Source: Candidatus Brocadiia bacterium
GTDB lineage: Bacteria > Planctomycetota > Brocadiia > CAIUPP01
Reading direction: 5' to 3'
Length of the DNA: 64,000 bases
NCBI GenBank assembly: GCA_050015075.1
Contig: JBEKCB010000007.1
Location: 1-64,000, forward strand
Shown here: piece by piece, positions 32,821-64,000 of the stretch
Layout: the number at the start of each line of letters is the position of its first letter
How positions within the stretch are numbered: position 1 is the stretch's first letter
Notes under the pieces: generated by a model
What the model was told of the DNA's origin: nothing
Database searches by the model: none
What the model saw: the letters and a program-made list of their open reading frames with translations, nothing else
Program-made: the position numbers and the translations under genes

Positions 32821-32849
32821 ATTCTGACTATCCGAATTCCGCCTGTCAA
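32821..32849 (-). promoter_or_regulatory. Putative sigma70 promoter
   Basis: Minus strand TTGACA-N17-CAGAAT. Confidence 0.6.
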
Positions 32850-47024: not shown

Positions 47025-47041
47025 AGCTGCACCTCTTCGGT

Positions 47042-48241
47042 CTATGCGTGAGCGTGTCGCGTCATGAAATCGCGCAAAGTGTTCATCAGATAGTCCACGT
47101 GTTGCGGACCCAGGTCCTGGTGGACGCCGACGTGGAATCCATGCGTGCCCACGTACTCGGCCTCGGGGAACTGACCGGGTTCGTATCCCAGGAACGCAAA
47201 GCCGGCGCACTGAGTGGGCATGGAGAGGAACAGGTTGCGGGTGTCAATGCCGGCTTCCTCCAGGTGGCGGACGAGTTCGTCCCGGGTGAACGGGGCGTTC
47301 TCCGCCACCAGGATAGGCAGCGCGTGCGGCCCGATGCGCTCGTGGTCCTCCTGGCGGAAGGTCGTCAGGTGCGGCTCGAACTCGCGGAGCCGCTCCATCA
47401 TTTCGGCGAGATTGCGGCTGCGCTTCTCCAGGATCTCGTGGTACACGCCGAGGCTGCCCAATCCGACGGCGGCCTCCAGCTCGTTCATCTTGCTGGAGAA
47501 GCCGATCCGCTCGAAGACGAACCGCGCGTCGGACCCGTACTGGAACCGCCGCTTGCAGCCGCCGCCCGAGCTGTTGATCACGCAACTCTTGCACTTGCAC
47601 GCCCGGCCGTGCGACCGGAGCGAGCGGATGACCTCGGCGAAGTCCTCCCGGTCGGTGGTGATGACGCCGCCCTCGACGGAGGTGATGATGTGCGCCAGGT
47701 AGAGGCTGTAGGCGGCCATGTCGCCGAGTGTGCCGACGTTGCGCCCCTTATACGTGGCGCCGTGGGCTTCGGCGGCGTCCTCGACGACGAACAGGTCGTG
47801 TCGCCTGGCGATGGCGTTGATCGTGTCCATCTCGGCCGGCTTGCCCATGAGGTGAACGGGCATGATGGCCACCGTGCGATCGGTGACGGCCGCCTCGATG
47901 CGGGCCGGGTTGATGTTCAGCGTGGCCCGCTCGACGTCCACGAAGGCCGGCGTGAACCCGGCCTGGAGCACCGCGTTGCCGGTGGCGACGAAGGAGAGCG
48001 ATGGCACGATGACCTCATCGCCGCGCTCAGCGCCGAAATCGTACAGGGCGGCCAGCGCCAGAGCGTCGGCATCCGCGCCGCTCGATACGGCGACGGCCTC
48101 GCGCGTGCCGGTGAGTTCAGCGAAGCGCTGCTCGAATTCGCGGACCATTTTGCCGCTCGACACGCGGCCGCTTTCCAGGGCCGCGAGGACGCGCTGCTTC
48201 GCGTCATCGGTGATCGTGATGGTTCCGAAAGGAATCTTCAT
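47042..48241 (-). CDS. DegT/DnrJ-fold PLP/PMP enzyme with His in place of the catalytic Lys (E1/RfbH/ColD-type C3-dehydratase-like)
   Basis: EDAAEAHGA; SLYLAHIITSVEGG (H at the K position); HGRACKCKSC...GCKRRF Cys cluster. Confidence 0.85.
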   Translation of the reverse strand: MKIPFGTITITDDAKQRVLAALESGRVSSGKMVREFEQRFAELTGTREAVAVSSGADADALALAALYDFGAERGDEVIVPSLSFVATGNAVLQAGFTPAFVDVERATLNINPARIEAAVTDRTVAIMPVHLMGKPAEMDTINAIARRHDLFVVEDAAEAHGATYKGRNVGTLGDMAAYSLYLAHIITSVEGGVITTDREDFAEVIRSLRSHGRACKCKSCVINSSGGGCKRRFQYGSDARFVFERIGFSSKMNELEAAVGLGSLGVYHEILEKRSRNLAEMMERLREFEPHLTTFRQEDHERIGPHALPILVAENAPFTRDELVRHLEEAGIDTRNLFLSMPTQCAGFAFLGYEPGQFPEAEYVGTHGFHVGVHQDLGPQHVDYLMNTLRDFMTRHAHA

Positions 48242-48271
48242 GGACCGCCTTTGCTTGCCGCTGCTCGGAAC

Positions 48272-49207
48272 TCAAACATTGCCGTAGGAGAACTTGGGCA
48301 GAAGCCGGTAGGACTTGATGAGTTCCGCGATGCCTTCTCGGAGCGTGCGCCCGGCCTTGAAGCCCGCCGCCTCGATCCTGGCGTTGGAGACGATGTAGTC
48401 GCGCTTGTCCGGGTCCTTGCCCAACGCGTATTCGGCAATGTGGAAATCCGGAATCTGCGCCTTGATCTCCTCGCACAGTTCCCGCTTGGACAGGTTCGCC
48501 TCGGACAGCCCCACGTTGTAGGGGCGTCCCTTCAGCCGGTCGAAATTCTCCAGGCAGAAGAGGAACGCGTCGGCCACGTCGCGCACGTGCAGGAAGTTGC
48601 GCTTGAAGTCCCCCTCGAACAGGACGATGAACCGGTCATTGACCGCGCGGAACACGAAGTCGTTCACCAGCAGGTCCGTCCGCATGCGCGGGCTGGCGCC
48701 GAAGACCGTGGCCAGGCGCAGCGTGACGGTGTTGTCCGCGGCGAGCAGCTCTCCCTCGATCTCCACCTTCAGCCGCCCGTACAAGCTGACCGGCCGCAGC
48801 GGCGTCTCCTCGGTGCAGTACTTGCCTTTCTCCCCGACTCCGTAGCCGCTGTTCGTGGTGGGAAAGATGATGAGCTGGCTCCCGGAGCGCAGTTTCAGGA
48901 TATCGCGGACCGCGTCCCGGATCACCGTCGTCGCGCCGACCGGGTCCTGGTTGCACAGCGGGGCGCCGGTCAGGCAGGCGAGCGGGAAGACGGCGTCAAC
49001 GTCCTTGAGGCACCGCGCGAGAAGGTCGCGGTCCCGGCAGTCTCCGCGCACCACGTCGAATCGAGGATTCGCACAGCATTCGAGGAGGGAACTCTGGCGG
49101 TACATGAAGTTGTCCAGCGCCAGCACCGCGTGCCCCGCCGCCAGCAATCGAGGGACCATGACCGAGCCAATATACCCGGCGGCGCCCGTCACGAGAATCT
49201 TCGCCAC
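48272..49207 (-). CDS. NAD-dependent sugar epimerase/dehydratase/reductase (extended SDR)
   Basis: ILVTGAAGYIGS, SLYGRLK (YxxxK), RLATVFGASPRMRTDLLVNDF. Confidence 0.93.
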   Translation of the reverse strand: MAKILVTGAAGYIGSVMVPRLLAAGHAVLALDNFMYRQSSLLECCANPRFDVVRGDCRDRDLLARCLKDVDAVFPLACLTGAPLCNQDPVGATTVIRDAVRDILKLRSGSQLIIFPTTNSGYGVGEKGKYCTEETPLRPVSLYGRLKVEIEGELLAADNTVTLRLATVFGASPRMRTDLLVNDFVFRAVNDRFIVLFEGDFKRNFLHVRDVADAFLFCLENFDRLKGRPYNVGLSEANLSKRELCEEIKAQIPDFHIAEYALGKDPDKRDYIVSNARIEAAGFKAGRTLREGIAELIKSYRLLPKFSYGNV

Positions 49208-49264
49208 GTCGCGCTCCGAAGCGCCTTCAGGTCCACTCAAAGGCACAAAATGCCTACTCTCTGA

Positions 49265-49293
49265 ATCTTACCTATTCTGTCGGGTTTTCGCAA
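49265..49293 (-). promoter_or_regulatory. Putative internal sigma70 promoter
   Basis: Minus strand TTGCGA-N17-TAAGAT. Confidence 0.55.
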
Positions 49294-49351
49294 GATGTAT
49301 TCTGCGAGGCACCGCGGCCTGTGCAGGGCTTGCGAAGATTGAAGCTCGGCC

Positions 49352-50929
49352 CTATTGCATGGTAATGATGCGGTCCCGAGGCACGCCGAGCGCCTTCAGC
49401 CGCTCGACGCGCTCGCCGATCCCGACAATGGCCGCCACCACGATGGTGTCGCCGCTTTGAGCCATCTCCTTCTCCGTCATCGTCGGGCGCCCGAGCAATC
49501 GCGGCGGCGCCGTGGGCCGGAACGGGCACACGGCCTTGATGTGGACGGGCAGGCGCCTGGCCATCGCGCAGAGGACGCGGGCCACATCGCCCTCTCCGTA
49601 CAGAACCAGGTCGGTGCGGCGTTCCTGAATGGCAAAGCCCAGCGCCAGGGAGCACTGTCTGAACCAGTACCGGTCGAAGGCGATAATCCTCTTAAGGAAG
49701 GAGACCAGCGCTTTGGATTTGCGAACGCCCTCATGGGCGGCGGAACTGCCCGCTCGAGGGGCGGCGAGGGCGGCCGCGCGCCACTTGACCCGCCACTGAT
49801 GCCACAGAATGCGAAGCGCCACCGGCCGCAGATACAGACGCGTCCAGCGGCCGAGCCGGTGACCGAAGGGCGGTACATGCGCGGAGGCCGGCCCCTGCGC
49901 CGGGGCGCCCGAGCCCGCGCGTTCCCGCAAAGCGATCTTGCGTTCACCCAGACGATAAGGCCGCGTCACCGCGTCGAGCCGGTCGTACCGCCAGGACGGC
50001 AGCCAGTCCGGGTCCACCAGGTCTTCCAGCGGGGCGGCGCTCGGCGGGCGGACCGCGTCCAGGCGCAGCTTGCGCAGGGCCGGGCACTCGAGGAAGGGCA
50101 GCGTTCGGTTTGAATGGAGGCACATCAGCGCCCGGGTGGACATGTGCCGTCCGTCGTGCGGCCCGGCGTAATTGCGATCGCCGGCCTGGCCGGGATGCCA
50201 CACATGGTACAGCCACTCCGCGTCCTGCCAGACTTCCCGCTTTCCGAGGTTGACGAGCCGCCACGTCATCTCGTAAGCGCCCGCAATATGGCCCAGGTAG
50301 TCCAGGTGCATGTCGGACCCGCCGATGGCGACCAGGTCGTCGCGGCGCGCGGCCATGCACGCGCCGTAGTTCCGCGTGTGCAGAGGGTCGGCCTTGTCGA
50401 GCAATCCCAGCGGCTTGCCGTTGACCCAGTTGATGCACCCGAAGCCGGTGATGTCCTCGAACCGCGCTCGGTCGAAGGGATAGAAGCTCGGGTGGTTGTT
50501 GCGGACTTCGTCCAGATGCAGCACGATGTTCGGGTCCGCCTGGAAGGCGTTGCGGATGGACTCGATGAACGTGGGGCGCGCCAGGGCGTCGGAGTCCGCG
50601 AAGCACACGACGCGGCCGCGCGCCAGCAGGATGCCCGCGTTGTACATGGCGTGCTTGTGGTAGCACAGACCCGGGTCCATGCCCAGCACGGCCCAGACGT
50701 CCACAGGCGGCGCCTGGCCGGAAGCGGCCGCGCGGTCCATCCGCTCGCGCAGGGCCGGCCACTCGCGCTGATAGTACTCGATCCAGATGATCTCGTAACG
50801 CTCGCGGTCAACGGTCTGCTCGGCGAGGCAGTCGAGCAGGTGCGCGCTCTCCCGGCAGGACCAGTCCAGCAGGACCAGGCTGACATCCACGCCGGCGGGG
50901 CGCTCTCTATTGACGATGAACCGGGTCAC
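49352..50929 (-). CDS. GT2-like glycosyltransferase with C-terminal Rossmann-like domain
   Basis: LAEQTVDRERYEIIWIE, YNAGILLARGRVVCFADSD, LYHVWHP; C-terminal LVLYGEGDVAR; GTGA overlap. Confidence 0.82.
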   Translation of the reverse strand: MTRFIVNRERPAGVDVSLVLLDWSCRESAHLLDCLAEQTVDRERYEIIWIEYYQREWPALRERMDRAAASGQAPPVDVWAVLGMDPGLCYHKHAMYNAGILLARGRVVCFADSDALARPTFIESIRNAFQADPNIVLHLDEVRNNHPSFYPFDRARFEDITGFGCINWVNGKPLGLLDKADPLHTRNYGACMAARRDDLVAIGGSDMHLDYLGHIAGAYEMTWRLVNLGKREVWQDAEWLYHVWHPGQAGDRNYAGPHDGRHMSTRALMCLHSNRTLPFLECPALRKLRLDAVRPPSAAPLEDLVDPDWLPSWRYDRLDAVTRPYRLGERKIALRERAGSGAPAQGPASAHVPPFGHRLGRWTRLYLRPVALRILWHQWRVKWRAAALAAPRAGSSAAHEGVRKSKALVSFLKRIIAFDRYWFRQCSLALGFAIQERRTDLVLYGEGDVARVLCAMARRLPVHIKAVCPFRPTAPPRLLGRPTMTEKEMAQSGDTIVVAAIVGIGERVERLKALGVPRDRIITMQ

Positions 50930-51636
50930 GGCCTGCCCTTCGCTCTTCGGGCCAGGTTCTCGGCGGCGATCTGGCGCCCTTCTTCCCAGGCGATGAAGAC
51001 CAGTTCGTCGGCGAACTCCCGGGGCTTGACGTACGTCGCATCCAGCGGCGCCTTGCCCGCCTCGAAATGCATGTGCTCGAGCACAATGTCCTTCAAGTAG
51101 GCGAGGCGGTCGCAACCGAGGGCCTTGAGCTTCCGGAAGATGTCGTACAGATGGGTGTCAATGTAGTCGCGGTTGTACTCGACAGGCACCAGCCCGCCCG
51201 CCAGCGCCCACGCTTCGCGGTGGAAGGCCGGCAGGCAAGGCAGCGCCGCTCCTCGAAACAGGTCGTTGCACCACACGAGCGCAATCCGATCGGGGAACCG
51301 GTTGAGCGCCTCGACCACCGCCGTATCCCAGCCGGCAGTGCGGCACACGACGTCATCGTTCATCAGCATGAGGTAGTCGCCCCGCGCGGCCGCGTAACAC
51401 GCGCCGGTCATGGCGCCCATCTTGGCGGACCGCCCAATGCACCGGCGGACCGACAGCCTCGGATGGCCCACGTTGTGGCTGGCGCGATCGTCGGCATCCA
51501 GGAAGAGCACCACCTCGATGCGGTCCGGCCGGTCCGCCGTGGCTACGATGCTCTCGAACAGCCTCGCGACGCAGTCCGGACGGCCCCGAACGGGAAGCAG
51601 AAGGCTGAGGACGCTGTTCTGTGCGATTTCCGCCAT
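50926..51636 (-). CDS. Glycosyltransferase family 2
   Basis: SLLLPVRGRP, IEVVLFLDADD, YLMLMNDD, YIDTHLYD. Confidence 0.88.
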   Translation of the reverse strand: MAEIAQNSVLSLLLPVRGRPDCVARLFESIVATADRPDRIEVVLFLDADDRASHNVGHPRLSVRRCIGRSAKMGAMTGACYAAARGDYLMLMNDDVVCRTAGWDTAVVEALNRFPDRIALVWCNDLFRGAALPCLPAFHREAWALAGGLVPVEYNRDYIDTHLYDIFRKLKALGCDRLAYLKDIVLEHMHFEAGKAPLDATYVKPREFADELVFIAWEEGRQIAAENLARRAKGRP

Positions 51637-51654
51637 GTCGGAGCCGCATTCCAA

Positions 51655-53127
51655 TCACGAATAGAGATTGCGCCGGATCGGCTGCTCCAGCATTTTCTTC
51701 ACGTGGACGACGGTCGGCCGGCCGAATTTCTCTTCGAGCATTTGCAGATAGCGCGGGTTGCTGTGATACGCGCGGAAGGCCTCGTCCCTGAACCGCAGCA
51801 CCTCGGCGGCGGACAGGTGCTTGGTTGGCAACGGCTGCGTGTCGGGGCTGAGCTGCGCGTAAGCTCCCCACGTGTCCGGCAGGCGGAGCCGCGCGTTGAG
51901 GGCGTCCTGGTACAATCGGGAGCCGGGGTACGCCATGGCACAATACAGGTTCAGGTACTCGAAGTTGTGCCGGTACGCCTCATCCAGGGTCTGCCGCATC
52001 GTCTCGGCATCGTCGTCGGGCAGGCCGACGATGTAGTTCGCGATGATGTGGATGCCCGCCTCCTTCGTCCAGCGGATGGCATTCTCCACTTTCTCCGCCG
52101 TCACGCCTTTTTCCACGCCGTCCCTGACGTTCGCCGAGGCGGATTCGAATCCATAGGCCAGCCACCGCATGCCCGCCCGCCGAAGCTTCTTGAGCAGTTC
52201 GGGCGTGACGGTGTCCACGCGCGCGTACGCCCACATGTTCAGATCGTAGTTTCGCTCGATCAGCGCATCGCAGAACTGCTCGATGCGGTCGCGTTTGAGC
52301 ACGAACAGCTCGTCGAGAATCTTGATCGTCCTGACGTGCCAGCGGTTCACGAGGAGGTCAATTTCCTCGACGACCTGCCCGATGCTGCGATAGCGGATGC
52401 CGCTCTCGCCGAAAAGCGCGTTGATGCAGCAGAAGTGGCAGCGGAACGGGCAGCCGAGCGAGGTGTAAATCACGGCGTAAGGGCTGCGCTCGTGAAGGCG
52501 GCCGAAGCAGTGCCAGTTGTGCGCGCGGTACCGGTCCATGGGAAGCAAGTCCCACGCCACGCCCGGCAACTCCGCGTCCAGGTCCTCGATCAGCGGCGCG
52601 GCTCCGTTGAATACGATTCGGCCGTCCCGGCGATGCCACAGGCCGGGGATGGCGGCAAGGTCCTCGCTGCCGGCGCGCAGCGCCCTCAGCAACGGCTGGA
52701 TCGTACGCGGGCCTTCGCCCTGGCACACGAAATCGGCGGCCTCTTCCCGGAGCGTCCGTTCCGGCAGGGCCGAGACGTGAAGCCCGCCGAGCATCTGCTT
52801 CACATCGGGCGCCGCGTTTCGAACGGCGGCGCAGATGGCGCCGGCCGCCGGCATTTTCTGCGTCGAGGCCGATGGGTTCGCGCCGAACACCACGGTCATG
52901 GCCAGACGAGGCCGCGCCTCGGCAACCCGCCGCGCCACTTCCTCGGGGCCGAGGCCTTCCGCTTCCGCATCGAGGATCGCCACGCGGAAGCCCGCATTGC
53001 GGGCGTTCGTGGCCAGAAGGCCGGCCCAGACCGGCGGCTCCACGGCCGCGAACTCGCCGGCGAGCGCCTGGTAGGCCTGGTTCCGTCCGCCGGGATTGAT
53101 CAACAGCAAGTCCAGCCGGTCGCTCAT
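51655..53127 (-). CDS. Cobalamin-binding radical SAM protein
   Basis: N-terminal B12-binding region (GGLHVSALPE, QGEG), TSLGCPFRCHFC, YGFES, NYIVGLP. Confidence 0.93.
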   Translation of the reverse strand: MSDRLDLLLINPGGRNQAYQALAGEFAAVEPPVWAGLLATNARNAGFRVAILDAEAEGLGPEEVARRVAEARPRLAMTVVFGANPSASTQKMPAAGAICAAVRNAAPDVKQMLGGLHVSALPERTLREEAADFVCQGEGPRTIQPLLRALRAGSEDLAAIPGLWHRRDGRIVFNGAAPLIEDLDAELPGVAWDLLPMDRYRAHNWHCFGRLHERSPYAVIYTSLGCPFRCHFCCINALFGESGIRYRSIGQVVEEIDLLVNRWHVRTIKILDELFVLKRDRIEQFCDALIERNYDLNMWAYARVDTVTPELLKKLRRAGMRWLAYGFESASANVRDGVEKGVTAEKVENAIRWTKEAGIHIIANYIVGLPDDDAETMRQTLDEAYRHNFEYLNLYCAMAYPGSRLYQDALNARLRLPDTWGAYAQLSPDTQPLPTKHLSAAEVLRFRDEAFRAYHSNPRYLQMLEEKFGRPTVVHVKKMLEQPIRRNLYS

Positions 53128-54176
53128 CGCGCCGCCCGCCCCGCTTTCCGCCCGACCAGCGCCCGGGCCGCCGAGACGACGTCCCTGGGACCCGGGTAAT
53201 AAGTGGACTCACTGCATGCGGGCACGGGCGTATCGGGCAAGCCGATCCGCGCAGGCGCCGCCTTGAATGCGCCCGGCCCGACGCCCGAAAGGGTCTGCGC
53301 GATGACCTCGCCGCCCACCCCGAACAGCGTGTGACCCGTGTCCACCACCAGCAGGCGCCCGGTCTTGCGCACCGACTCGCACACCGGCGCCGGATCGAGC
53401 GGGCGCAGCCAGCGGAGATCAATGACTTCGGCCTCGATGCCATGTTCCTCGGCCAGTGTGCCCGCGGCCAGCAGGGCATCGGCCAGCGCGTAACTCAGGG
53501 CTACGATGGTCAAATCCGATCCTTCCCGGACCGTCTGCGGCGGCCCCGGCGGACGGAAGTAGACGCCCTCTTCCACGTGCCCGGAAAGGTTCCAAAGCCA
53601 CTTGTGTTCCATCAACATCACCGGCCCGGCGGCTTCCAGGGCCGCGTAAAGCAGCATACCCTTGGCGTCCGCGGGAGTAAAGGGAACGGCGACGCGCAGT
53701 CCCGGGAAATGCGCCAGGACCGCGTGGAGGGCCTGGCTGTGCTGGGCGGCCGAACCCCAGCCCCGGCAGGCGACCGAGCGGATCGCCATGGGAGTTGCGG
53801 TTTGATGGCCGAACATCAGGTCCCACTTGGCGGCGTGGTTGGCAATCTGGTCCAGGCCGACCAGCAGAAAGTCGTTGCGGGGATGGACGACGATGGGGCG
53901 CAGCCCGCCCAGGCTCATGCCGATGCCCATGCCGGTGATGATTTCCTCGGCCGTGGGGACATCGAAGACGCGTTCCTCGCCGAAGACCTCCTGAAGTCCT
54001 TTCGTCGTCCCGTAAGTCCCGCCCAGGTCCGCGACGCCCTCGCCGAAGAGCCGCACGCGCGCATCGGTCTCCAGCGCCAGCCGCGTGGCCTCGGCCAGGG
54101 CCTGCTGGTACGTCAGCGGCCGCTTTCCTTGAGCGAGAAGCTCGGGCAGCTTGGGCGTCGTTCCCCAGTTGCTCAT
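53124..54176 (-). CDS. TPP-dependent dehydrogenase E1 beta-like subunit
   Basis: FGEERVFDVPTAE, DQIANHAAK, AQHSQAL, PFTPADAKG, EVIDLRWLRPLD. Confidence 0.92.
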   Translation of the reverse strand: MSNWGTTPKLPELLAQGKRPLTYQQALAEATRLALETDARVRLFGEGVADLGGTYGTTKGLQEVFGEERVFDVPTAEEIITGMGIGMSLGGLRPIVVHPRNDFLLVGLDQIANHAAKWDLMFGHQTATPMAIRSVACRGWGSAAQHSQALHAVLAHFPGLRVAVPFTPADAKGMLLYAALEAAGPVMLMEHKWLWNLSGHVEEGVYFRPPGPPQTVREGSDLTIVALSYALADALLAAGTLAEEHGIEAEVIDLRWLRPLDPAPVCESVRKTGRLLVVDTGHTLFGVGGEVIAQTLSGVGPGAFKAAPARIGLPDTPVPACSESTYYPGPRDVVSAARALVGRKAGRAAR

Positions 54177-54194
54177 CGGTCTGCTGACCCATCT

Positions 54195-55118
54195 CTAAAC
54201 GTGGCGGTACTCCAGGACGGTCTCTTCACTCTTCAGCGCCTCGGCGTAGGCCCGGTCAACCTGGCCGCTGACCTCCGCGTCAATCGCATCAGCCTCCGCG
54301 CGGGCCAGCGTGCAGCGGGCCACCTTCATGGGGCAGTACTTCTCAAAGAGTTCCATCTCGACCGCGTCGCGGAAGCCGGCGGCGATGTCGTCGCGGATGC
54401 CGTTGTGGTCATATCGGCGGACCGTGCTGCACTCGACGAACAGCGGTCCGCCGGCCTCGCGCACGCGCCGGATCGGCTCGGCCAGCGCCCGGTGAAGCGC
54501 GAAGACGTCGTTGGCCACCTCGATGGAGAAGTCATGCGTTTCCATGCCGAAGGCCCGCGCCACCGCCGCCGGATGCGCCGCCCGCCGGACGCGCTGCGGC
54601 GTGTAGACGCTGTAGCGGTTGTTTTCGCAGAGGAAGATCACCGGCGCGCCGCGGAGCTGGGCGTAGTTGAGGCTCTCCGCGAACACGCCCTCGTCGGCCG
54701 CCGCGTCGCCGAACAACACGGCCGCCACCGTCGGCCGCCGCACGGCCAGCCCCAATCCGACGGCGATGGGCAAGGCGCCGCCGACGATGCTCGTCGTGCC
54801 CACCAGGCTGTTCTTGCGGTCCACAAGGTGCATCGAGCCGCCGTATCCGCCGCTGCACCCGCATCGGCGACCCAGCAACTCGCCGAAGAAAGCCACCAGG
54901 TCGCCGCCGTTGGCCAGATAAAGCGCGTGCGATCGGTGCGTGCCGATTTTCAGATCGTCCGGGGCCAGGTGCGCGCACAGCGCCACCGCGACGGATTCCT
55001 GCCCGACGCTCAAGTGCACCGGACACTGCATCACGTTGGACGCGTACACGTCCAGGATCTTCTGCTCAGCGTGACGGACCAGCGACAGGGTCCGGTAAAG
55101 TTGGCTGTTTTCTTCCAT
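54195..55118 (-). CDS. TPP-dependent dehydrogenase E1 alpha-like subunit
   Basis: PVHLSVGQE, THRSHA, GGSMH, FGDAAADEG...CENNRYS (GDG-X-NN variant). Confidence 0.92.
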   Translation of the reverse strand: MEENSQLYRTLSLVRHAEQKILDVYASNVMQCPVHLSVGQESVAVALCAHLAPDDLKIGTHRSHALYLANGGDLVAFFGELLGRRCGCSGGYGGSMHLVDRKNSLVGTTSIVGGALPIAVGLGLAVRRPTVAAVLFGDAAADEGVFAESLNYAQLRGAPVIFLCENNRYSVYTPQRVRRAAHPAAVARAFGMETHDFSIEVANDVFALHRALAEPIRRVREAGGPLFVECSTVRRYDHNGIRDDIAAGFRDAVEMELFEKYCPMKVARCTLARAEADAIDAEVSGQVDRAYAEALKSEETVLEYRHV

Positions 55119-55196
55119 GGTTTCGCTGCCGGGCCAGGTTGCGCGGCATCTCAGTCCTTTTGAGCCGGATGCTCGAACGGCGTGAGGCGGCCGCGT

Positions 55197-56126
55197 TCAC
55201 TTCTGACAGAAAGCCAGGCCGACGAATGATTTCATCGAAGGGCCGGCCGGCTTCGGCTGTGCGGGCGCCGGGGTCGCATAGTCATGCCGTCCGGCGGCCT
55301 CGGCATGGTAGGCCGACGACGGAAACCGCGTTTCGAGGTCAACCACCCGCGCGAATCCCGCTTCCTTCAGGCAGCGCCGCAGGAGCTTTTCCGACAGGTA
55401 GACGGAGTTGTCAAAGCACCATGGGAACGGATTCGAGAACACCTGGTTCGGTTCGCCCATTCTGATGACATACTCATCGTCATCCCAGACATTGGTGATC
55501 AGCAGCAGGGCTTCGCGGGTGATCGAGCGCAGGAAGTGAAGATGACGAAGAGGTTCCGTCAAATGCTGAAGAACGCTCATCGAAACCACCACGTCGTATT
55601 CGGGGCAGTTGGGTATGACGCCCAGGCGCAGATCGTAACCGGCGTGGACGAATTTTGCCTTGGTGCCCAGCAACCGATTCAGGAAATCAACGCACGCGCC
55701 CCGGTCGTCCTGATCATAACCGACCGCGAGCCTCATTCCACGCCTCGACATCGCCACGGGAATATATCCGGCGAAGCAGCCGATGTCCGCCAACGACTTC
55801 TCGCCGAGGTCGTGAATGTGTTCGCACAACTGGTCTACAAATCCGTCGTAGACCTGGCGTATCGCCGAATTGGCCAGGCTGAATGCCTGCGCTTCCTGAT
55901 CGGCGACCAAGAGACGCGGCACGGACGCGCTGGGGTATTTGGCGGCATCGTATCCCGGCCAGCGAATCTGCCCCGCACTCGGGTTCCGCGTCACAAACGT
56001 ATAGCCGGCGCCGACTTCGAGCTGGTCCGTGATGATGAAGGGCTGATAGGTAAAGCTTCCGGAGCAGATGAGCCGCTTGGCCTCTTCCGCATCAGCTTCG
56101 GTTTTGACGAACGGCCTCAAGTCCAC
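55197..56126 (-). CDS. Class I SAM-dependent methyltransferase
   Basis: LADIGCFAGY, YDVVVSMSVLQHLTEP; GAGG RBS before GTG. Confidence 0.85.
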   Translation of the reverse strand: MDLRPFVKTEADAEEAKRLICSGSFTYQPFIITDQLEVGAGYTFVTRNPSAGQIRWPGYDAAKYPSASVPRLLVADQEAQAFSLANSAIRQVYDGFVDQLCEHIHDLGEKSLADIGCFAGYIPVAMSRRGMRLAVGYDQDDRGACVDFLNRLLGTKAKFVHAGYDLRLGVIPNCPEYDVVVSMSVLQHLTEPLRHLHFLRSITREALLLITNVWDDDEYVIRMGEPNQVFSNPFPWCFDNSVYLSEKLLRRCLKEAGFARVVDLETRFPSSAYHAEAAGRHDYATPAPAQPKPAGPSMKSFVGLAFCQK

Positions 56127-56286: not shown

Positions 56287-58866
56287 TCAACCGCGGCCGA
56301 GGGTGTCGTCTATCATGGCGCGCGCCTGCGCTTCGGTCAAAGCCAGGAGAATGCCGGGCGTTTCTCTGTCCGCCTTGCGAGCCAGATTCAGCGGTCCCAA
56401 CGTAAGAGGCGCCGCAAGGACGCACCGTCCGTAGGCGACCAGATTGTAGCCCTTGTACGATCCGATCAGGGTGGGCGGAGGGCTTCCCTCGTAGCGCGGC
56501 AGGGCTTTCACCGCTTTCACGGCGACTTCGCCGGCAACCGATGGGATGCCGAGAAACGCGTCGCCCACGCGGCAGACCAGGTAAGGCTCGCCGTCCCCGG
56601 CCAGGCTCAGGAATCCGTCAATGGCCTGGATCAACTGATCGCGGGTCTCACCGATGATTATCCATGGCTGCGCGCGGTCCGCCGCACGGGTGAAGTCAAT
56701 GCGTCCGAGCGCGGCGGGCGCGCCGTAAAAAAGGCCGCGATAAAGGACCACGTTGTAGCCCCGGTAGGCCTGGAACAATTGAGGTTGGTCGGAGGCGTGC
56801 GCGACCGCCTCGTTGACTGCGGCGGACGCGGGCTTGCTCTGTTCCTTGCACGCCGGCGCGTTGTGCGTGGAGGCCAGGTCGGCATCCTTTCGTTCGACCT
56901 CCTGCGCGGTGAACTCGGTCCACGCCGTTGTGGGAATGCCGTTCTCATGGAGCGCGCGGACGATCCGCTTGAGCCTCTGATAGCGGACTTGCGCGTCAAT
57001 ATAAGGGGATTCGCTGTGCCACTCGCCGTCGGGGATGGCCACGGGGTAACGAGAATAGAGTTGTTCCCGGGGCGTGCGGAATTTAATGCCGAACTCCTCG
57101 GGCCGGTTCCAGTAGTCGGAGCCTCGGAAAAGCATCAGCGGGTTGACGAAGGGCACGCGCCCGATCCAGGGTTTCAGCGCCTTGAAGAACTCGATCGCCT
57201 CATCCACGTCCGCCTCGGTCTCGCCCGGAATCCCCACAATCGCGTTCACCTCGGTGGTGATGCCGGCCTCCGCGGCAAACCGCAGATTGTCGTGAACGAC
57301 CTCCTTGCTGTACCCTTTCCGCTGAAGTTTCATCGTATTGGCGGACCAGCCATCCACGCCGAACCGCAGGCAGACGAAGCCGGCCTTCGCGAGCTTGAGG
57401 TAATATTCCTTTCCGGCGCGCTTGTTGCAGCGGAGTTGCGCGGTCATGTGAATCGCCAGGCCCCGCCGGATGATTTCATCGCACAGCCTCTCGATCAGCG
57501 ACGTGTCGCCGTGCAGGTCGCTCTCATTGAAGACGAACTCGACGGCGCCCATCTTGCAGAAGTACTCGATATCGTCCACCACTTTCTCCGGCGTGCGGGC
57601 GCGCCAGTGGAAACGCTCCGCGCAAAAGCGGCAACGCGACCACGGACATCCTCGGCTTCCCACAATCGGCACCAGCCAGTAGCCGTTCCAGTTTCGATAA
57701 CGCCGCGGGTCGGTCCATTCGTAACGCGGATGACCCAGCGGATCGAGTTCGGCCGGAATGGGGCCCGGCTGGAATTCACGGTCGGGCGTATCGCCGCGCG
57801 ACCAGACGCCCGGCAGGTCGTGCGGCTTTTCGCCCCTGAGGATGGCTTTGACCAGCGGCCCGACCGTGAGGTCCGCCTCGCCCACGACGGTATAATCCGC
57901 CGGCGGGAAGATGAACTTGGCGACGCCCGGCTGCAGGCAGCTCATGCCTCCTGCAATCACCACCAGGCCGGGGAGGCGGCTGCGCACTTCCTGCACGATG
58001 TGCCGGGCGAACGTGAGGTTCGCCTGCTGCAGCGAACAGGCAAGGATCTTCGGTTGCGCCCGCACCAGTTTGGCGACGATCTCATCCATGTCCGGCTGGA
58101 AGTAGCCGACAAAATCGTCTTTTTCCCACTCGAGGTAGTGAACGGACTGCCAGGGGTCCTCCGGCATGCGCCGGCCCGCAGGCGTTCTCATCACGGGGAT
58201 CGCGTCCAGAATCCGGTCCGAGTGGAAGCGATGATAGATGATATTGTCCAGGTCCACTGTCTGGAGGCGGATCCCCTCGCGTGCGAGCGCCATCTGCACA
58301 TAACCGAATCCCACGGGCAATTGGGCGATGCTCCGGGCAGGGAAGTCCAGCAGAATCACATCCTGTCCCGGGAGGAACTCGATCTCCGGGATTTCAATGG
58401 GATAGATGCTCTTGACGGCGGGGACCCAGGCGCGCGAGGGGATCGCTCTCCAATCGAGATTTTTCAGGTCGTCCAGGGTCACTTGCCTGACGCGCGCGGG
58501 CAAGGCCTTGCGCATGCGGTCCAGGACGCGCCCGCGGACCTCGCACAGGAAAACGGTGCTCACGGCGGCGGGCAGAGACTCCGGGCGCATGGCGGCCATC
58601 CCGGCAAAGTCTCCGGCGGCGCGCACCGGGTCCTCATCCACGATCACCGAAACGCGTTCTCTCAAAATGGGCGATTGTTCGAGAAGATACCGGGCAAGGC
58701 GCCCGGCGCCGAAGAAGGCCACTCCGCCCTCCATGCCGGCGAGATGGTTGGCCAGAACCGACACGCAGCGACGGTCCTCCTCGCCGCCGTCAAACCGAAA
58801 ACAGCGCGCGCGCGAGAAAACCATTTCCTTGAGATCGGCCTCAAGGGTTATGGCGGCATTCGCCAT
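56287..58866 (-). CDS. Cobalamin-binding radical SAM protein with N-terminal Rossmann-like domain and two C-terminal YxGYN modules
   Basis: FFGAGRLA; LPVGFGY, IAGGMSC, VGEAD; SRGCPWSRCRFC; YRGYNVV and YKGYNLV modules. Confidence 0.9.
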   Translation of the reverse strand: MANAAITLEADLKEMVFSRARCFRFDGGEEDRRCVSVLANHLAGMEGGVAFFGAGRLARYLLEQSPILRERVSVIVDEDPVRAAGDFAGMAAMRPESLPAAVSTVFLCEVRGRVLDRMRKALPARVRQVTLDDLKNLDWRAIPSRAWVPAVKSIYPIEIPEIEFLPGQDVILLDFPARSIAQLPVGFGYVQMALAREGIRLQTVDLDNIIYHRFHSDRILDAIPVMRTPAGRRMPEDPWQSVHYLEWEKDDFVGYFQPDMDEIVAKLVRAQPKILACSLQQANLTFARHIVQEVRSRLPGLVVIAGGMSCLQPGVAKFIFPPADYTVVGEADLTVGPLVKAILRGEKPHDLPGVWSRGDTPDREFQPGPIPAELDPLGHPRYEWTDPRRYRNWNGYWLVPIVGSRGCPWSRCRFCAERFHWRARTPEKVVDDIEYFCKMGAVEFVFNESDLHGDTSLIERLCDEIIRRGLAIHMTAQLRCNKRAGKEYYLKLAKAGFVCLRFGVDGWSANTMKLQRKGYSKEVVHDNLRFAAEAGITTEVNAIVGIPGETEADVDEAIEFFKALKPWIGRVPFVNPLMLFRGSDYWNRPEEFGIKFRTPREQLYSRYPVAIPDGEWHSESPYIDAQVRYQRLKRIVRALHENGIPTTAWTEFTAQEVERKDADLASTHNAPACKEQSKPASAAVNEAVAHASDQPQLFQAYRGYNVVLYRGLFYGAPAALGRIDFTRAADRAQPWIIIGETRDQLIQAIDGFLSLAGDGEPYLVCRVGDAFLGIPSVAGEVAVKAVKALPRYEGSPPPTLIGSYKGYNLVAYGRCVLAAPLTLGPLNLARKADRETPGILLALTEAQARAMIDDTLGRG

Positions 58867-58878
58867 CTCTTTTTCCCT

Positions 58879-61800
58879 CTACTTCACCCGCACCGCAAGC
58901 TCAAAGCCATGGGCGATGAGATCGTCGGGCGGAATCGAACTCAATTCCTTCCGGATATCTTCGGTCAGGAGGTCCTTCCCTTCGTACGAGCGCACGAAAT
59001 GCAGCACCTCGACGTCCGGGGCCTCCATGAATTCACGAATCCCGTATTCCTCGAAGCGCTTCCGGTTCACGTGGGCCGGGTTGAGCATGGATTCGAGGTA
59101 CTCCTTCGGCTCTCTTCCCATCTTGCGCCGCATGACCGCGTCCAGGCCGCGCTTTCTGCAATGAGCCAGGATGGCCTCCGGAGTGAGGCGAAGATGAATC
59201 CACGGGAAGTCGTCGAAATAGCCGAACATATGATGCCCGAACGGCGAGAAATAAAGAGGGCCGGCCTGCAAATAAATGCAGCCGCCGGAGCAGGTGACGC
59301 GTTTCATTTCCTGCAGCGCGCGTGCGGGGTCTGTGATATGTTCGAGCGTGGCAATGGAGAAGCACGCGTCAAAGCTGCCGTCGGGGAAGTCCATTTCCGT
59401 CGCCCCCATTCGGCGATACGTGATGCGGGGATTGGGATACGCGCAGCCGACCGTGGCCAGCAGGTCAATGCCGGTCATGGATGCGGGCTCTTCGGCCAGG
59501 AGAAGATCGCACACGAGCCCGTCGCTGCAGCCGACTTCCAGCACGTGCTTGCCCTTCAGCGGCGGAACGAAGCGGAACATGCTGTTGAGATAGGCCTTGT
59601 TGTACACGATGCGATGCACGTCCTCGCCCCGGTACGTGCGAGCCGGACGATCGGCGGATGCGATAATCAGCCAGTCGGCCAATTGCGCCGCGAGCGCCTC
59701 CGCATGGTTGTCGGCCCACTTCGGCCGGCCATCGCACGGAAGGATGACGACATCGCAGCGTTCCTTGCGAAGGGCCTCCAGGAGTTCGGGCGACAAGCGG
59801 GCCGGATCGAAGAGGTCCGTCTCGCGGCCCTGGGCATCCTTCAGGACATGCATGGGGCCTTCGGCGTACTCCCGAGCCCAATGCGCGGGCGCCAGGCAGG
59901 CGACCTCGTAATCCGGGAATTGGCGCACCAGCCGTTTCGCCGTGGCGGGGGCGACGGTCCCCAGGAACAGCGCTTTGACTTTTCCGCCGGCCTTCGAACG
60001 GCGCTGAATTTCCTGCTGCACCTCCTCGATGGTGTTCCCGATCAGGCATTGACTGTAATTCCCCTTTTGCGCGCGCGCCAGCTCGAACGCTCCCTCGCTC
60101 TGCGGCGTGGCGAAATATTTTGTCGCGCAGAAGGTGATGGTGAAACCTTGATAATCGGGCAGCACCGTGCGGGCGGTTGCCGAAGCCGAATCATCGCCGA
60201 CCGGCGGCAGCGCGCGCGGATTTTCAACCCGAGCGCCGCCGCTCCGCCGCGGCGGGCGCGGGGTCAGCGCGGATATCAGTTTCTTCGTCAAGGCCCGCGG
60301 CCCGAAGCCGGGAGGATTCCTTCTGCCGCTGAGCTTGACGCCCAGAGAACGGCCGAGTTCGAAGAGAATCGCCGCGGCCTGCGAGAAACTGACCTTCTGC
60401 CGAACCAGCTCGTTGCGCACGAAGGGAGAGCCGTCGGCGGAAGATGTGACTTGATCTATCCGGCTTCGCGCGTCTGCTTCGGAGGCGCACGCCAGGACTC
60501 CTTCACGAGACCGCGCGGACTCCTCCCTCAAGTCCATTTCTCCGAATGCCAGCGGCACGGCCAGGACCGTTCTGCCGAATTCAACGACATTGTACGACTT
60601 GTATGAGGAGAGCAGAATGGGCGCATAGCCGCCGCGAACGATCGGCGTACGCTGCAGGCGCTCCAGGACTTTTTCGGCGATCCGCATGCGGCCCTCATCG
60701 CCGCTCGCCGCGTACTGCGTCCGGGCTTTTGCCAGTTCGGTCACGAGCAGGCTGCGAAACAGCGGGAATGGTTCCGAGGCTCGGACCACCTCTTCCAGTT
60801 GTGCGGCAAAGCGGTCCGGCTCCGTCGGCCCCTCGCCGCCGAGGAGTCCATAGATCCGCCTGGGGATTGCGACGAACGGGGCCAGCCGCTCGTCGGGCAG
60901 CCACACACTCTCTTCCAGCTTGGAGAGCCGGCCCGTGTCCAGCCACTCGGCGACAAAGACGTCCAGGTCCTTGTTCCAGAGCCGTTGGGAAGCGGCGGAA
61001 CCGTGCGGCAGGGTGGCGCCGGCGAGATGCGTGACGCAAACCTCAGGCGTGCACACCAGCTTGTAGCGCGTTTCCCAGATTTTCAGGCTGTAGTCAATGT
61101 CGAGGAAGTACTTGCTGAAGGCCTCATTGAAGCGAATGTCGCCCACTCTGCGCATGTGGACCAGGAGGCAGGCGCTGCATGCGCAGGGCGTTTCGCGGGG
61201 ACGCTCCGGCACATCCAGGAGATGCGAGTGCGACCCGAACCGGTCGCCCATCATATACGCGCCGGTGAAGGATATATTGCCCGCGGCGTCTTTGTGCATG
61301 GGCGCGACGACGCCCACGTCCGGCTCCAGGGCGCGCAGCAGACCGTCCAGCCAGCCGTTTTCGACATACACGTCGTCATCCATGAGAACCAGGTAGTCGC
61401 TCCGGACCGCTCGAAGGACTTTGTTCATTTCCCGCGGATGATTGAAATCCCGGCTCCGATTGTTGTCGAGCAGAATGAGTTCCGCCTCGCTCGCGTGCTC
61501 CTTGAGCAGCGAAAGGCAGCGGGCGGAGTGCGTCTGCCGGAAATCGGCGCTGACGACCGCGATGGTCACCGAGGGCTTCCGCGACGATGTGTCGGACGAT
61601 CCGGTGGGCCACCAGTTGACGTACTCCGGCCGACGGAACATATAAGGATCCGTGATATGGCCCAGCCGGCGGGTATAGCCGCTTCGTTTTCGCGCGGCGG
61701 ATGATTCGTCAATCAGCGCGGCGAGGCGAAGCGCATTGGTCCGCCGCTCGTCGAGCTTCTCCATGAAGCGCCGGGAGTCCGCCTCGTGGATTTCCTGGCT

Positions 61801-62427
61801 GGGCACATAAACTTTGGCTTCCTCGGATTGGAAAACCGACTTGGCCTTCCCGTCCGCAGCCTTGTCAAAATTGTCATGCTCGAAAACCACGTCGGGCAGG
61901 TAGAAGATGCGTTTGTGGCCCAGGTGCGCGAGCATGCAATACGTGTCGTAGATGTGATCGTCAATCCGATACCGATGGTAGTCGGCCGGGCACAGGCCGA
62001 TCTCACGGCAGGCCCTGCGCGAGAGGCAGGGGAACGTGCACAACTTCTCACGGAAGAGCAGGTCGTTGAGATGGACGAGGGCGATGTCGTCCCGGACGGA
62101 TCGAAACACGTCGCCCACCGCCCGGTCCCAGTTCTTCGTTCGGACGATGATGTCATCGTTGACGAGCATCACGTGGCGGCCCGACGACGCCTCGAAACAG
62201 GCGCGGTTGAGCCGGCCCATGGAAAGCCCCGGCGGAACGACGACTTTTTTCAGACTGAGAGCGCTGAACTGGATGGACTGAGAGGCTTTGTCGTCCTCGT
62301 CCAGGCAGAGGACGACCTCCAGCGATCCCGGAACGAGGACCGTCTCGGCCACGCTCTCCAGGAAGCGCCGCACCAGCTCCGGCCGTCCCCTCGTCGGGAG
62401 GAGCAGCGAGTATTCGAACACGTTCAA
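58879..62427 (-). CDS. Multidomain GT2-GT2-(YxGYN modules)-methyltransferase
   Basis: SLLLPTRGRP...LVNDD; LVLMDDDVYV...FLDIDYS; YKSYNVV; VLEVGCSDG, FSIATLEHITDP, PLYFSPFGHH. Confidence 0.9.
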   Translation of the reverse strand: MNVFEYSLLLPTRGRPELVRRFLESVAETVLVPGSLEVVLCLDEDDKASQSIQFSALSLKKVVVPPGLSMGRLNRACFEASSGRHVMLVNDDIIVRTKNWDRAVGDVFRSVRDDIALVHLNDLLFREKLCTFPCLSRRACREIGLCPADYHRYRIDDHIYDTYCMLAHLGHKRIFYLPDVVFEHDNFDKAADGKAKSVFQSEEAKVYVPSQEIHEADSRRFMEKLDERRTNALRLAALIDESSAARKRSGYTRRLGHITDPYMFRRPEYVNWWPTGSSDTSSRKPSVTIAVVSADFRQTHSARCLSLLKEHASEAELILLDNNRSRDFNHPREMNKVLRAVRSDYLVLMDDDVYVENGWLDGLLRALEPDVGVVAPMHKDAAGNISFTGAYMMGDRFGSHSHLLDVPERPRETPCACSACLLVHMRRVGDIRFNEAFSKYFLDIDYSLKIWETRYKLVCTPEVCVTHLAGATLPHGSAASQRLWNKDLDVFVAEWLDTGRLSKLEESVWLPDERLAPFVAIPRRIYGLLGGEGPTEPDRFAAQLEEVVRASEPFPLFRSLLVTELAKARTQYAASGDEGRMRIAEKVLERLQRTPIVRGGYAPILLSSYKSYNVVEFGRTVLAVPLAFGEMDLREESARSREGVLACASEADARSRIDQVTSSADGSPFVRNELVRQKVSFSQAAAILFELGRSLGVKLSGRRNPPGFGPRALTKKLISALTPRPPRRSGGARVENPRALPPVGDDSASATARTVLPDYQGFTITFCATKYFATPQSEGAFELARAQKGNYSQCLIGNTIEEVQQEIQRRSKAGGKVKALFLGTVAPATAKRLVRQFPDYEVACLAPAHWAREYAEGPMHVLKDAQGRETDLFDPARLSPELLEALRKERCDVVILPCDGRPKWADNHAEALAAQLADWLIIASADRPARTYRGEDVHRIVYNKAYLNSMFRFVPPLKGKHVLEVGCSDGLVCDLLLAEEPASMTGIDLLATVGCAYPNPRITYRRMGATEMDFPDGSFDACFSIATLEHITDPARALQEMKRVTCSGGCIYLQAGPLYFSPFGHHMFGYFDDFPWIHLRLTPEAILAHCRKRGLDAVMRRKMGREPKEYLESMLNPAHVNRKRFEEYGIREFMEAPDVEVLHFVRSYEGKDLLTEDIRKELSSIPPDDLIAHGFELAVRVK

Positions 62428-62474
62428 CGGCCATCCTCCGGTTCAGCCCGACGCATCAGACAGCAGCGGCGCGC

Positions 62475-64000
62475 TTACGCTTTTGCCGTCTTTCTCAAAC
62501 CGAGAAACCAGGCGCGCCAGCCCGGCTTGGGTTTGGCATCCTCCGTCCGCCGCATGGCTTCGAGAGCGGCATGCGCTTGCGAGACAGCCTGGTCCTTGTC
62601 TGCGATCTCAGCGTCCTTCTCGGCAATCACTTTCCAGAGCGTGGCGAGCTCGGCGTCCTTATGCTCCATTTCCTGTCGGAGCGTGGCTAGATCGGCCTCG
62701 CTCGCCCGCCGCAGAGCTTCAAGAGCTGCGCGCAATTGGCAGGCGTCCTGGTCCTTGCCGGCAATCGCCGCCTCTTTTTCAGCGACCACTTTACGAAGCG
62801 CGGCGATTTCTTCATCCTGGCGTTCCGTCCCTTTTCGGAGCGCGGCCAGATCGGCCTCGGCCGCGCGGCGCAGGGCTTCGAGAGTCGCGCGCAATTGGCA
62901 GGCGTCCTGGTCCTTGCCGGCAATCGCCGCCTCTTTTTCAGCGACCACTTTACGAAGCGCGGCGATTTCTCCATCCCTGCGTTCCGTCTCTTTACGGAGC
63001 GCGGTCAGATCGGCCTCAGCCGCGCGACGCAGGGCTTCGAGAGCCGCGCGCAGTTGCGAGACGGCCTGGTCCTTGCCGGCCATTGCGGCGTCTTTTTCAG
63101 CGACCGCCTTACGGAGCGCGGCGATTTCTCCATCCTTGCGCACCGTCCCTTCGCGGAGCGCGGCCAGATCGGCCTCGCGCACCGCGGCGGCGGCTTGCAG
63201 CGCCCCGATTTGCGCCGCCTTTTCATCGAATTCAACGCGGAGGCGCCTGGAGCGCGCTCGATCAACGAGTTGTTGCGCCTGGGGCACGTCCTCCGCTACG
63301 ACGAGCATGTGCTGCGCCTGGAGTTCATTCAAACGCGGCGCGTCGAGGCTTCGCAGGTCCAGCGGCCCCAACTCCACCGAAGCCGCATAGACTCTGCCGG
63401 CGTACCGCACGAGGTTATACCCTTCGTGATTTCCGATGAGGGCGGGAGAATCGTCCGCGATCGGCGGCTCGTTGAGCCTGGGCAGCAGACTTTCCATGCT
63501 CTCCGAACGGAGGACTTCGGGTCGCTCGCGAAGGGCTTGTCGGGTTATATCGAGACCTTGGAGAAGGGCATGCGGAACCGCGTATATGTTTTTCTCGTAT
63601 CGGAAAAGAGCGTAAGTGCGCGTGTAGCAGAGCGGCGGAGGCGGCTGCTGGAGGCTGTCTTCAATGCCCGGAAAAGCGATGTCGGTCGGCTCCCAGCCCT
63701 GGCTCTGCGGCAGGCGGCGCACGCTCCAGATCGAATGATTGATCGAGTACTTCTCGAAGGTCTCGCCGACGGCCAGCACGACGCCGCAATGGACGGTTTG
63801 GAAATAATCGGTCTCTTTGCCCTGGTCGAGGAACCCGCGCTCGAAGTCGCGGATGCGGCCTTCGCAGTCGTGCCCGCAAAGAATTCCGCCGCTCCGCACC
63901 AGGTTGGAGTAGGCCTGAATGTCCCGCAGGACGCCGCCGTAGCGGTGGTCCCCGTCAATGAACACCAGGTCAAAGGCGCCCTCTTTGAGTATCGCGGCGG
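62475..64000 (-). CDS. 5'-truncated SAM methyltransferase (Methyltransf_24-like) with YxGYN modules, long coiled coil and basic amphipathic tail
   Basis: Frame open to the window edge: AFDLVFIDGDHRY...VRSGGILCGHD; HEGYNLVRY; ends GWRAWFLGLRKTAKA. Confidence 0.88.
   Translation of the reverse strand, partial: AAILKEGAFDLVFIDGDHRYGGVLRDIQAYSNLVRSGGILCGHDCEGRIRDFERGFLDQGKETDYFQTVHCGVVLAVGETFEKYSINHSIWSVRRLPQSQGWEPTDIAFPGIEDSLQQPPPPLCYTRTYALFRYEKNIYAVPHALLQGLDITRQALRERPEVLRSESMESLLPRLNEPPIADDSPALIGNHEGYNLVRYAGRVYAASVELGPLDLRSLDAPRLNELQAQHMLVVAEDVPQAQQLVDRARSRRLRVEFDEKAAQIGALQAAAAVREADLAALREGTVRKDGEIAALRKAVAEKDAAMAGKDQAVSQLRAALEALRRAAEADLTALRKETERRDGEIAALRKVVAEKEAAIAGKDQDACQLRATLEALRRAAEADLAALRKGTERQDEEIAALRKVVAEKEAAIAGKDQDACQLRAALEALRRASEADLATLRQEMEHKDAELATLWKVIAEKDAEIADKDQAVSQAHAALEAMRRTEDAKPKPGWRAWFLGLRKTAKA
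62541..63176 (-). repeat. Four 159-bp (53-aa) tandem repeats encoding a coiled coil
   Basis: EADL units start at 63176, 63017, 62858 and 62699 (period 159); units 2 and 3 are nearly identical in DNA. Confidence 0.92.

Follow-up and report, generated by a model that had tools for sequence, protein, structure and literature searches.

A 57-residue repeated module on polymer-acting enzymes and the exporter of bacterial glycan loci: distribution, genomic context and putative function

Glucan-binding and choline-binding/CROP repeats are related and tyrosine-rich, and cohesin-dockerin pairs and the docking domains of polyketide synthases and nonribosomal peptide synthetases (PKS/NRPS) are small modules present on several enzymes of one pathway. 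For glycan assembly, the carbohydrate-binding modules (CBMs) of glycosyltransferases (GTs) with a GT-C fold, namely Citrobacter youngae ORF12 (GT136) and mycobacterial EmbC and AftD, are described in the available part of PMC11127046 as binding the acceptor polysaccharide and as dispensable in some cases, and it is proposed there that they raise the local acceptor concentration. Excerpts of three further sources state that the carbohydrate-binding domain of the exporter Wzt binds the chain end jointly with its ATPase domain (PMC9445017), that the Klebsiella pneumoniae O7 terminator ORF6 has a predicted CBM between its catalytic head and its coiled coil (PMC11231755), and that tandem glucan-binding repeats of glucansucrase are needed for efficient transfer (PMC12375890). 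The present study concerns a module of about 57 residues that is repeated in three adjacent genes of a glycan locus of a Candidatus Brocadiia bacterium, in a stretch of 64,000 nucleotides (assembly GCA_050015075.1, contig JBEKCB010000007.1, positions 1 to 64,000; hereafter the window).

The module is a new domain family, uncurated in the libraries scanned. It is a conserved accessory domain with its own fold, present in multiple copies but optional, and in glycan loci it is found almost exclusively on the exporter and on enzymes that act on the polymer. We consider it slightly more likely than not that the family consists of small non-catalytic glycan-binding (CBM-like) avidity domains that hold enzymes on the growing chain. 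The pathway type is already known, namely Wzm/Wzt export with a coiled-coil terminator candidate.

Module copies, fold and conservation

The preliminary description of the window had claimed six copies in three adjacent open reading frames (ORFs), and all six were found where it placed them, on the minus strand; a seventh copy, in Wzt beyond the window end, and the GT-C hosts treated below had been overlooked. The copies were verified using a profile hidden Markov model (HMM) seeded with a distant protein, from which the window copies and hosts at least 50% identical were excluded (19 further sequences dropped). This independent HMM recovered all six copies and the seventh with independent E-values (iE) of 3.6e-13 to 1.6e-5, and its best other match in the six-frame genome had an iE of 6.2. 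A deep HMM found no copies beyond the seven in the same genome. Pairwise similarity among the six window copies exceeded all 500 shuffles for 11 of 15 pairs; the weak pairs all involved the copies at 59998-60174 and 63468-63644, which leave-one-protein-out HMMs recovered poorly or not at all (59998-60174 was missed).

The first host (56287-58866, minus strand, 859 aa; PF02310 below cut-off, PF04055) is a B12-binding radical SAM protein with a Rossmann-like N-terminal domain, a B12 domain, a radical SAM domain and two modules, copy 1 at 56611-56787 (residues 694-752; iE 3.6e-13) and copy 2 at the C-terminus at 56302-56478 (residues 797-855; iE 1.2e-12), all on the minus strand. A stretch between the two (56509-56583, minus strand) is possibly a degenerate half-copy, with a weak score of 7.1 bits against the deep HMM. 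The second host (58879-62427, minus strand, 1182 aa; PF00535 at residues 323-379, PF08241) is a putative polymerase with two GT2-like domains, two modules and a class I methyltransferase domain, the first GT2 domain being deduced from homologues with an N-terminal PF00535. Its module copies, both on the minus strand, are copy 1 at 60448-60624 (residues 602-660; iE 1.2e-10) and copy 2 at 59998-60174 (residues 752-810; iE 2e-07), a divergent subtype with the loop E-G-A-F. The third host (62475-64000, minus strand) is cut at the window end, the full gene being C7:62475-64316 (613 aa), and comprises a Methyltransf_24 domain, two modules, a long coiled coil and a basic/aromatic C-terminal tail, an architecture which makes it a WbdD-like chain-terminator candidate. 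Its divergent copy 1 lies at 63468-63644 (minus strand; iE 1.6e-05) and its copy 2, of a long-loop subtype, at 63255-63449 (minus strand; iE 6.8e-10), just N-terminal of the coiled coil. The coiled coil itself (62500-63200, minus strand) consists of near-identical repeats and differs in length among close relatives (proteins of 546-666 aa), which fits the expectation for a chain-length ruler. The seventh copy (C7:64946-65137, outside the window; iE 3.8e-12) is situated between the ATPase and Wzt_C domains of Wzt.

AlphaFold2 (17 copies) predicted strands at residues 3-8, 11-16 and 19-24, a short helix, a strand at 44-46 and a helix at 49-58. The model is compact on its own (pLDDT 94.4 for the copy at 56302-56478), and the same elements are present in the full-length host model. 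The consensus of 915 copies is P-x-L-h-x-x-Y-x-G-[YF]-N-h-h-x-[YF]-x-G-x-[FY]-Y-[AG]-h-P-Q-x-L-G-x-h-D-h, followed after a variable loop by h-h-x-[AG]-x-[ST]-x-x-E-h-K-x-x-I. The asparagine is conserved in 819 of 908 copies and the aspartate in 709 of 915, columns 7, 10, 15, 19 and 20 are 64-89% F/W/Y, and this aromatic/N/D pattern is similar between GT-C and cytoplasmic hosts. The mean net charge is -1.3, without a conserved basic patch. Prediction of a module homodimer gave a score of 0.21 against a mark of 0.42, which counts neither for nor against self-association.

That the domain was unnamed had been noted from the outset, and it has no known-family match in Pfam, NCBIfam or PDB sequences: none of seven copies reached a significant family in the Pfam scan (best E 0.054), no NCBIfam family was significant across the modules, and a seven-copy profile had no match at E<=10 among PDB sequences. 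The PHROG search gave no match for three window stretches, and the weak matches of two multi-repeat proteins, in neither of which any one stretch was significant, were put down to noise summed over the repeats. The best VIA-align Z in a fold search of the module model was 4.5 among 48,161 chains, a search in which a small domain may be missed, and Foldseek returned no match at E<=0.001 in PDB or viral models, which does not by itself make the fold new. Two unnamed cyanobacterial clusters in the ESM Atlas (0.75-0.76) serve as a lead only; a four-copy protein gave no usable match there. No description of the domain was found in the literature searched, which covered few subscription papers and no supplements.

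Distribution, host enzymes and genomic context

A profile search among 1.84 billion representatives retrieved 1,363 protein clusters (50% identity) at E<=0.001 and 613 at 1e-10, with 1-16 copies per protein overall. The best 150 matches together with the first matches, a list that favours multi-copy proteins, held 603 copies in 164 proteins (1-13 each), and one further protein held 16. A degenerate DNA pattern searched over 185,579 genomes gave 78 stretches, which were merged to 64 regions on 63 contigs. HMM-confirmed copies were present in 63 of these regions (338 copies in 141 ORFs), and the background check found no domain of at least 10 bits in 9,125 reversed sequences; the pattern match in L084 lacked HMM support and was rejected as chance. 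Two or more module ORFs occurred in 43 of the 64 regions and three or more in 20, with a maximum of six, where some ORF pairs are frameshift pieces (L039, L059, L080) and L038 duplicates the G001 locus. The module is nearly confined to glycan loci and commonly present in several genes per locus, two points on which the preliminary description is supported.

According to the record titles, the module occurs in Nitrospirota, Nitrospinota, Planctomycetota, delta-, alpha- and gammaproteobacteria, Cyanobacteria, Leptospiraceae, Acidobacteria, Methylomirabilis and Omnitrophica. Among near relatives its occurrence is patchy: 2 of 41 relatives and, in the phylum, 4 of 401 genomes have it, counts that include the genome studied here and one chance match. 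A match in G335, an 80-aa frame overlapping another gene, was rejected as chance. Phages gave no module match, and a weak search of 180 candidates found no single-module proteins of 32-118 aa. Five whole genomes were searched. In three, every copy falls within a single locus; the two remaining genomes have additional sites, and those inspected comprise a radical SAM pair, a wzm-wzt pair and a GT. Azospirillum has two plasmid-borne glycan loci, each with the module in two genes; in A. lipoferum 4B, AZOLI_RS30765 and AZOLI_RS33525 contain two copies apiece.

Among 146 newly scanned top matches, 61 had a Pfam family at 1e-7, and 58 of these hosts are methyltransferases, radical SAM proteins, GT2/GT4 enzymes, or sulfo- or pyruvyl-transferases; the other three are a GSCFA protein, an adenylation-carrier-thioesterase protein (P0102, which ends in four modules) and a GT2/PSD1 fusion (P0133, possibly a chimera, in which a GT2 fragment and two modules are fused to PSCyt2/PSD1 domains). 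The 141 ORFs were classed manually from sequence clusters and Pfam into GT2/GT4 (30), B12 radical SAM (19), Methyltransf_24 (16), sulfotransferase-like (13), Wzt (9), SPASM radical SAM (7), GT-C-like (5), coiled-coil (4) and glycerophosphotransferase-like (4) proteins, and others or fragments (34). In the same regions the module was present in 16 of 19 Methyltransf_24 homologues, 23 of 43 GT2b homologues and 9 of 28 Wzt-like matches, and in none of 55 homologues of six nucleotide-sugar precursor enzymes and none of 23 Wzm. The Azospirillum modules in a fusion annotated as adenylyl-sulfate kinase are a partial exception. In A. lipoferum 4B AZO_p6 (L102:21505-28667) this module-bearing fusion is followed by a methyltransferase, a PEP-utilising enzyme, an amidotransferase and a cytidylyltransferase, a gene set which we take to resemble that for Campylobacter O-methyl phosphoramidate.

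Eight Wzt have an intact ATPase domain, and in each of them the one copy starts 82 residues past Walker B, before Wzt_C; no insert in the ATPase-CBM linker of Wzt was found in the literature searched. The module is optional, since orthologous enzymes occur both with and without it, and copy number differs even among close relatives (two versus three in the radical SAM protein). Genes consisting of two to four modules only were also found (L055:17696-18469, four copies, 254 aa; L045:14886-15542, three copies; L061:13145-13618; L104:5860-6300). At two places in G426 a two-copy gene of this kind is found immediately upstream of a SPASM radical SAM gene, and relatives of these two SPASM proteins carry modules fused N-terminally.

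Manual reading of the top matches gave 18 with a multi-pass membrane appearance. For the model of P0062 (pLDDT 83.1) Foldseek ranks 1-27 were all GT-C (best E 1.3e-4), and VIA-align aligned residues 9-787 with STT3 (Z 19.0, rmsd 6.9, 465 aligned), ArnT (Z 16.8) and PglB (Z 15.4). As modelled, the family would have the many transmembrane helices, large first external loop and C-terminal extracytoplasmic domain of the GT-C fold; it had no Pfam or NCBIfam match. This GT-C family (L025:7640-10777, L034:9901-12639, L035:16768-19206, L050:3671-6190, L074:9487-11358) is apparently unannotated. Thirteen helices, assigned by hand, leave 20 lysine and arginine residues inside versus 7 outside, which indicates an N-in, C-out orientation. 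The two modules of P0062 begin at residue 791, after the C-terminal domain that is extracytoplasmic in the matched structures, and the GT-C modules are predicted to be on the periplasmic side. Family members in L035 (E 1.7e-106) and L050 (E 8.1e-66) share their locus with module-bearing Wzt, coiled-coil and GT genes. Of 14 GT-C relatives, 8 carry 1-6 modules and the remaining 6 lack them (one of these is probably cut short); in one relative, P0174 (38% identical), an F5/8 type C discoidin-like domain occupies the module slot (E 8.2e-6).

Putative function of the module

The preliminary description had offered a docking or a glycan-binding function, and the evidence leans towards the latter: a pure docking role is disfavoured by the predicted periplasmic position of the modules on GT-C hosts, the variation in copy number and the clustering by host class. 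If the module binds glycan, each copy would weakly bind the lipid-linked chain and tandem copies would add avidity. Polymerase, methyl-, radical SAM and sulfo-modifiers, terminator and exporter would all be held on the same polymer, as would the GT-C side-chain enzymes after export, so that the enzymes would be gathered via the shared chain rather than by direct protein contacts. The module would then be an optional enhancer that orthologous enzymes acquire and lose.

The argument for glycan binding starts from the two membrane faces. The hosts include cytoplasmic enzymes that depend on S-adenosylmethionine, nucleotide sugars or ATP as well as GT-C proteins, and this presence on both faces, if the predicted topology holds, apparently favours glycan binding. 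The lipid-linked glycan (or the membrane) would be the only thing met by cytoplasmic GTs, methyltransferases, Wzt and periplasmic GT-C enzymes alike, and the module most likely binds the chain for this reason. The replacement of the modules by a discoidin-like domain in P0174 also counts for glycan binding, as do the absence from precursor enzymes and Wzm, the varying copy number and the conserved aromatics, asparagine and aspartate. The module slots correspond to reported CBM places, i.e., GT-C C-termini and the junction of terminator head and coiled coil (PMC11127046, PMC11231755).

Several points weigh against glycan binding. The fold, as predicted, differs from the beta-sandwich of most CBMs, D30, G27 and S47 may play a capping or turn role, and a single family would need to recognise glycans of differing chemistry in many phyla. 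The GT-C topology was assigned by hand from a single predicted model, and the discoidin swap concerns one protein, with 26.4 bits against a Pfam cut-off of 28.2. The lipoprotein-like 340-aa protein in G156 (L018:1471-2493, minus strand) has one C-terminal module, no glycan-gene neighbours and no Pfam match, one module-bearing radical SAM pair lies among housekeeping genes (L104), and the module-only genes fit an adaptor equally well.

We also entertain, as a tentative possibility, a pathway-wide address tag, by which polymerase, modifiers, terminator, exporter and periplasmic GT-C, together with module-only multivalent proteins, would be organised into a trans-membrane assembly line via a shared chain feature or self-association.

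Rather unlikely, in our estimation, is the complex of polymerase, radical SAM protein and terminator envisaged in the preliminary description, that is, a protein docking or scaffold code in which modules bind each other or a shared surface to assemble these enzymes, other modifiers and Wzt, with module-only proteins as adaptors. Predicted periplasmic GT-C copies could not meet cytoplasmic hosts, and only 9 of the 28 Wzt-like matches in module-bearing regions carry a module. Module identity within a host class across loci (0.320) exceeds that across classes within a locus (0.283; background 0.270), although nearest neighbours from the same locus and another host class numbered 10 of 214 versus 3.1 expected. 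A locus-specific address code arising by concerted evolution was tested as well and is weak at most. The regions with several module ORFs (43 of 64, up to six) and the module-only genes (L055, L045, G426) are what docking would produce, but copy number varies among close orthologues, and module-only genes could represent detached ends of fusion genes, given that fused versions are present elsewhere (P0122, Azospirillum). Multi-protein complexes are established for these pathways according to the excerpt of PMC11231755, and the small Rossmann-like accessory domain recurrent in these loci could be a partner; the same excerpt places the polymerase recruitment site of WbdD at the membrane-proximal C-terminus, whereas the modules here lie beyond the coiled coil.

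Membrane or lipid-carrier targeting, with the module binding the bilayer surface or the undecaprenyl-pyrophosphate end and so bringing enzymes to either face, would account for both faces, for the differing glycan chemistries, for the conserved aromatics and for the absence from soluble precursor enzymes. We nonetheless judge it improbable, given the net charge of -1.3, the lack of a conserved basic patch and the fact that GT-C and Wzt hosts are already membrane-bound. There is equally little to commend a structural spacer, or a mostly neutral mobile insert, that recombination spreads within glycan loci and that only tunes reach or chain length: near-identical tandem expansions (same-protein identity mean 0.427, 90th percentile 0.626), gain and loss on orthologues and placement before coiled coils agree with it, but many copies are C-terminal tails separating nothing (radical SAM, GT-C), and strong conservation over 915 copies with none in 55 adjacent precursor genes argues for selected binding.

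If glycan binding is correct, the module founds a new CBM family; if docking is correct, it provides a reusable assembly tag for glycoengineering; and if it is read as an address tag, it would be a portable part for bringing new modifying enzymes (cobalamin radical SAM, sulfo-, pyruvyl- and phospho-transferases) onto a surface glycan. The module marks those enzymes of a glycan locus that probably act on polymer rather than on free precursors. In nitrifiers, planctomycetes, magnetotactic Nitrospirota and Azospirillum, it thereby offers an entry point to many cobalamin and SPASM radical SAM enzymes that are still uncharacterised, to sulfotransferases and to a GT-C family without annotation. It is unusual for one domain to be common to unrelated enzyme folds, an exporter and post-export enzymes of the same pathway, and the question of how a set of modifying enzymes locates a lipid-linked chain, both before it is exported and afterwards, becomes testable.

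The surrounding locus and comparison with known systems

Two exporter genes lie outside the window: wzt (C7:64313-65902, 529 aa, one module) directly upstream of the terminator candidate, and wzm (C7:65904-66743) upstream of wzt. Wzm and a Wzt with a C-terminal CBM thus adjoin GT genes, as in an ABC-transporter-dependent pathway, and the operon order is wzm, wzt (one copy), the Methyltransf_24 protein (two), GT2-GT2-methyltransferase (two), B12 radical SAM (two) and module-free genes. By its architecture the Methyltransf_24/coiled-coil protein is a candidate terminator that would cap the chain. The module-free remainder of the glycan cluster (43937-56126, minus strand; Pfam and NCBIfam assignments) encodes a methyltransferase, a thiamine pyrophosphate (TPP) E1 alpha/beta pair, a second B12 radical SAM protein, two GT2, an epimerase, a DegT protein, a nucleotidyltransferase-like ORF, a heptose-kinase-like GHMP kinase and a GT4. 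The GHMP kinase resembles heptose-7-phosphate kinases (NF049969, 218 bits, below cut-off), and, together with the nucleotidyltransferase-like ORF, DegT, epimerase, TPP E1 pair and second B12 radical SAM protein (43937-55118, minus strand), suggests that the glycan contains heptose as well as branched or C-methylated sugars.

The small Rossmann-like domain at the N-terminus of the module-bearing radical SAM protein (58462-58734, minus strand) resembles the C-terminal domain (about 49355-49620, minus strand) of the GT2 at 49352, with a profile E of 2e-6 among six seeds. Found again in 18 and 10 of the related regions, this domain may be a second shared module. No complementary partner of the 57-residue module was identified, no systematic search having been made; this domain is the sole candidate. 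Elsewhere in the window, a module-free multi-pass GT-C-like ORF and two related secreted-looking proteins were observed on the minus strand (26873-28324, 29715-32849, 35161-36771); none is confidently annotated, and one of the secreted-looking proteins has a weak match to an NADase-type glycan-binding domain (E 0.0045). No member of the module-bearing GT-C family was found in the same genome.

Like cohesin-dockerin modules, the module is appended across the enzymes of one pathway, and module-only tandem proteins resemble scaffoldins; unlike these and the PKS/NRPS docking domains, it has no sequence match to them and is predicted on both membrane faces. As in glucansucrase (excerpt of PMC12375890), tandem repeats are attached to a glycosyltransferase. 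Unlike glucansucrase/CROP repeats, the module has no Pfam match, is a longer unit predicted to fold by itself, and occurs on many unrelated enzyme folds. It shares with the C-terminal CBM of Wzt (PF14524; PMC9445017, in part) the same transporter and a place beside the ATPase domain, but Wzt_C is retained, and the module, which has no sequence match to it, is an additional element inserted into the ATPase-CBM linker. WbdD-type terminators have the same methyltransferase head and coiled coil, and the module sits in the slot of the O7 ORF6 CBM (excerpt of PMC11231755), which is predicted to be immunoglobulin-like, unlike the module, while the terminator role of the window protein is deduced from its architecture. 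Finally, as with the CBMs of ORF12, EmbC and AftD, the module is a C-terminal, predicted extracytoplasmic and optional accessory domain of GT-C enzymes, ORF12 being active without its CBM (available part of PMC11127046); those are single immunoglobulin-like domains there, whereas the module is a 57-aa alpha/beta unit in 1-6 tandem copies that is also found on cytoplasmic enzymes. On GT2, GT4 and GT-C hosts it forms, in keeping with the CAZy notion of a CBM, a separate folded unit that lacks catalytic function and is joined to a carbohydrate-active enzyme; its filing as a CBM hinges on binding, and it probably works like one.

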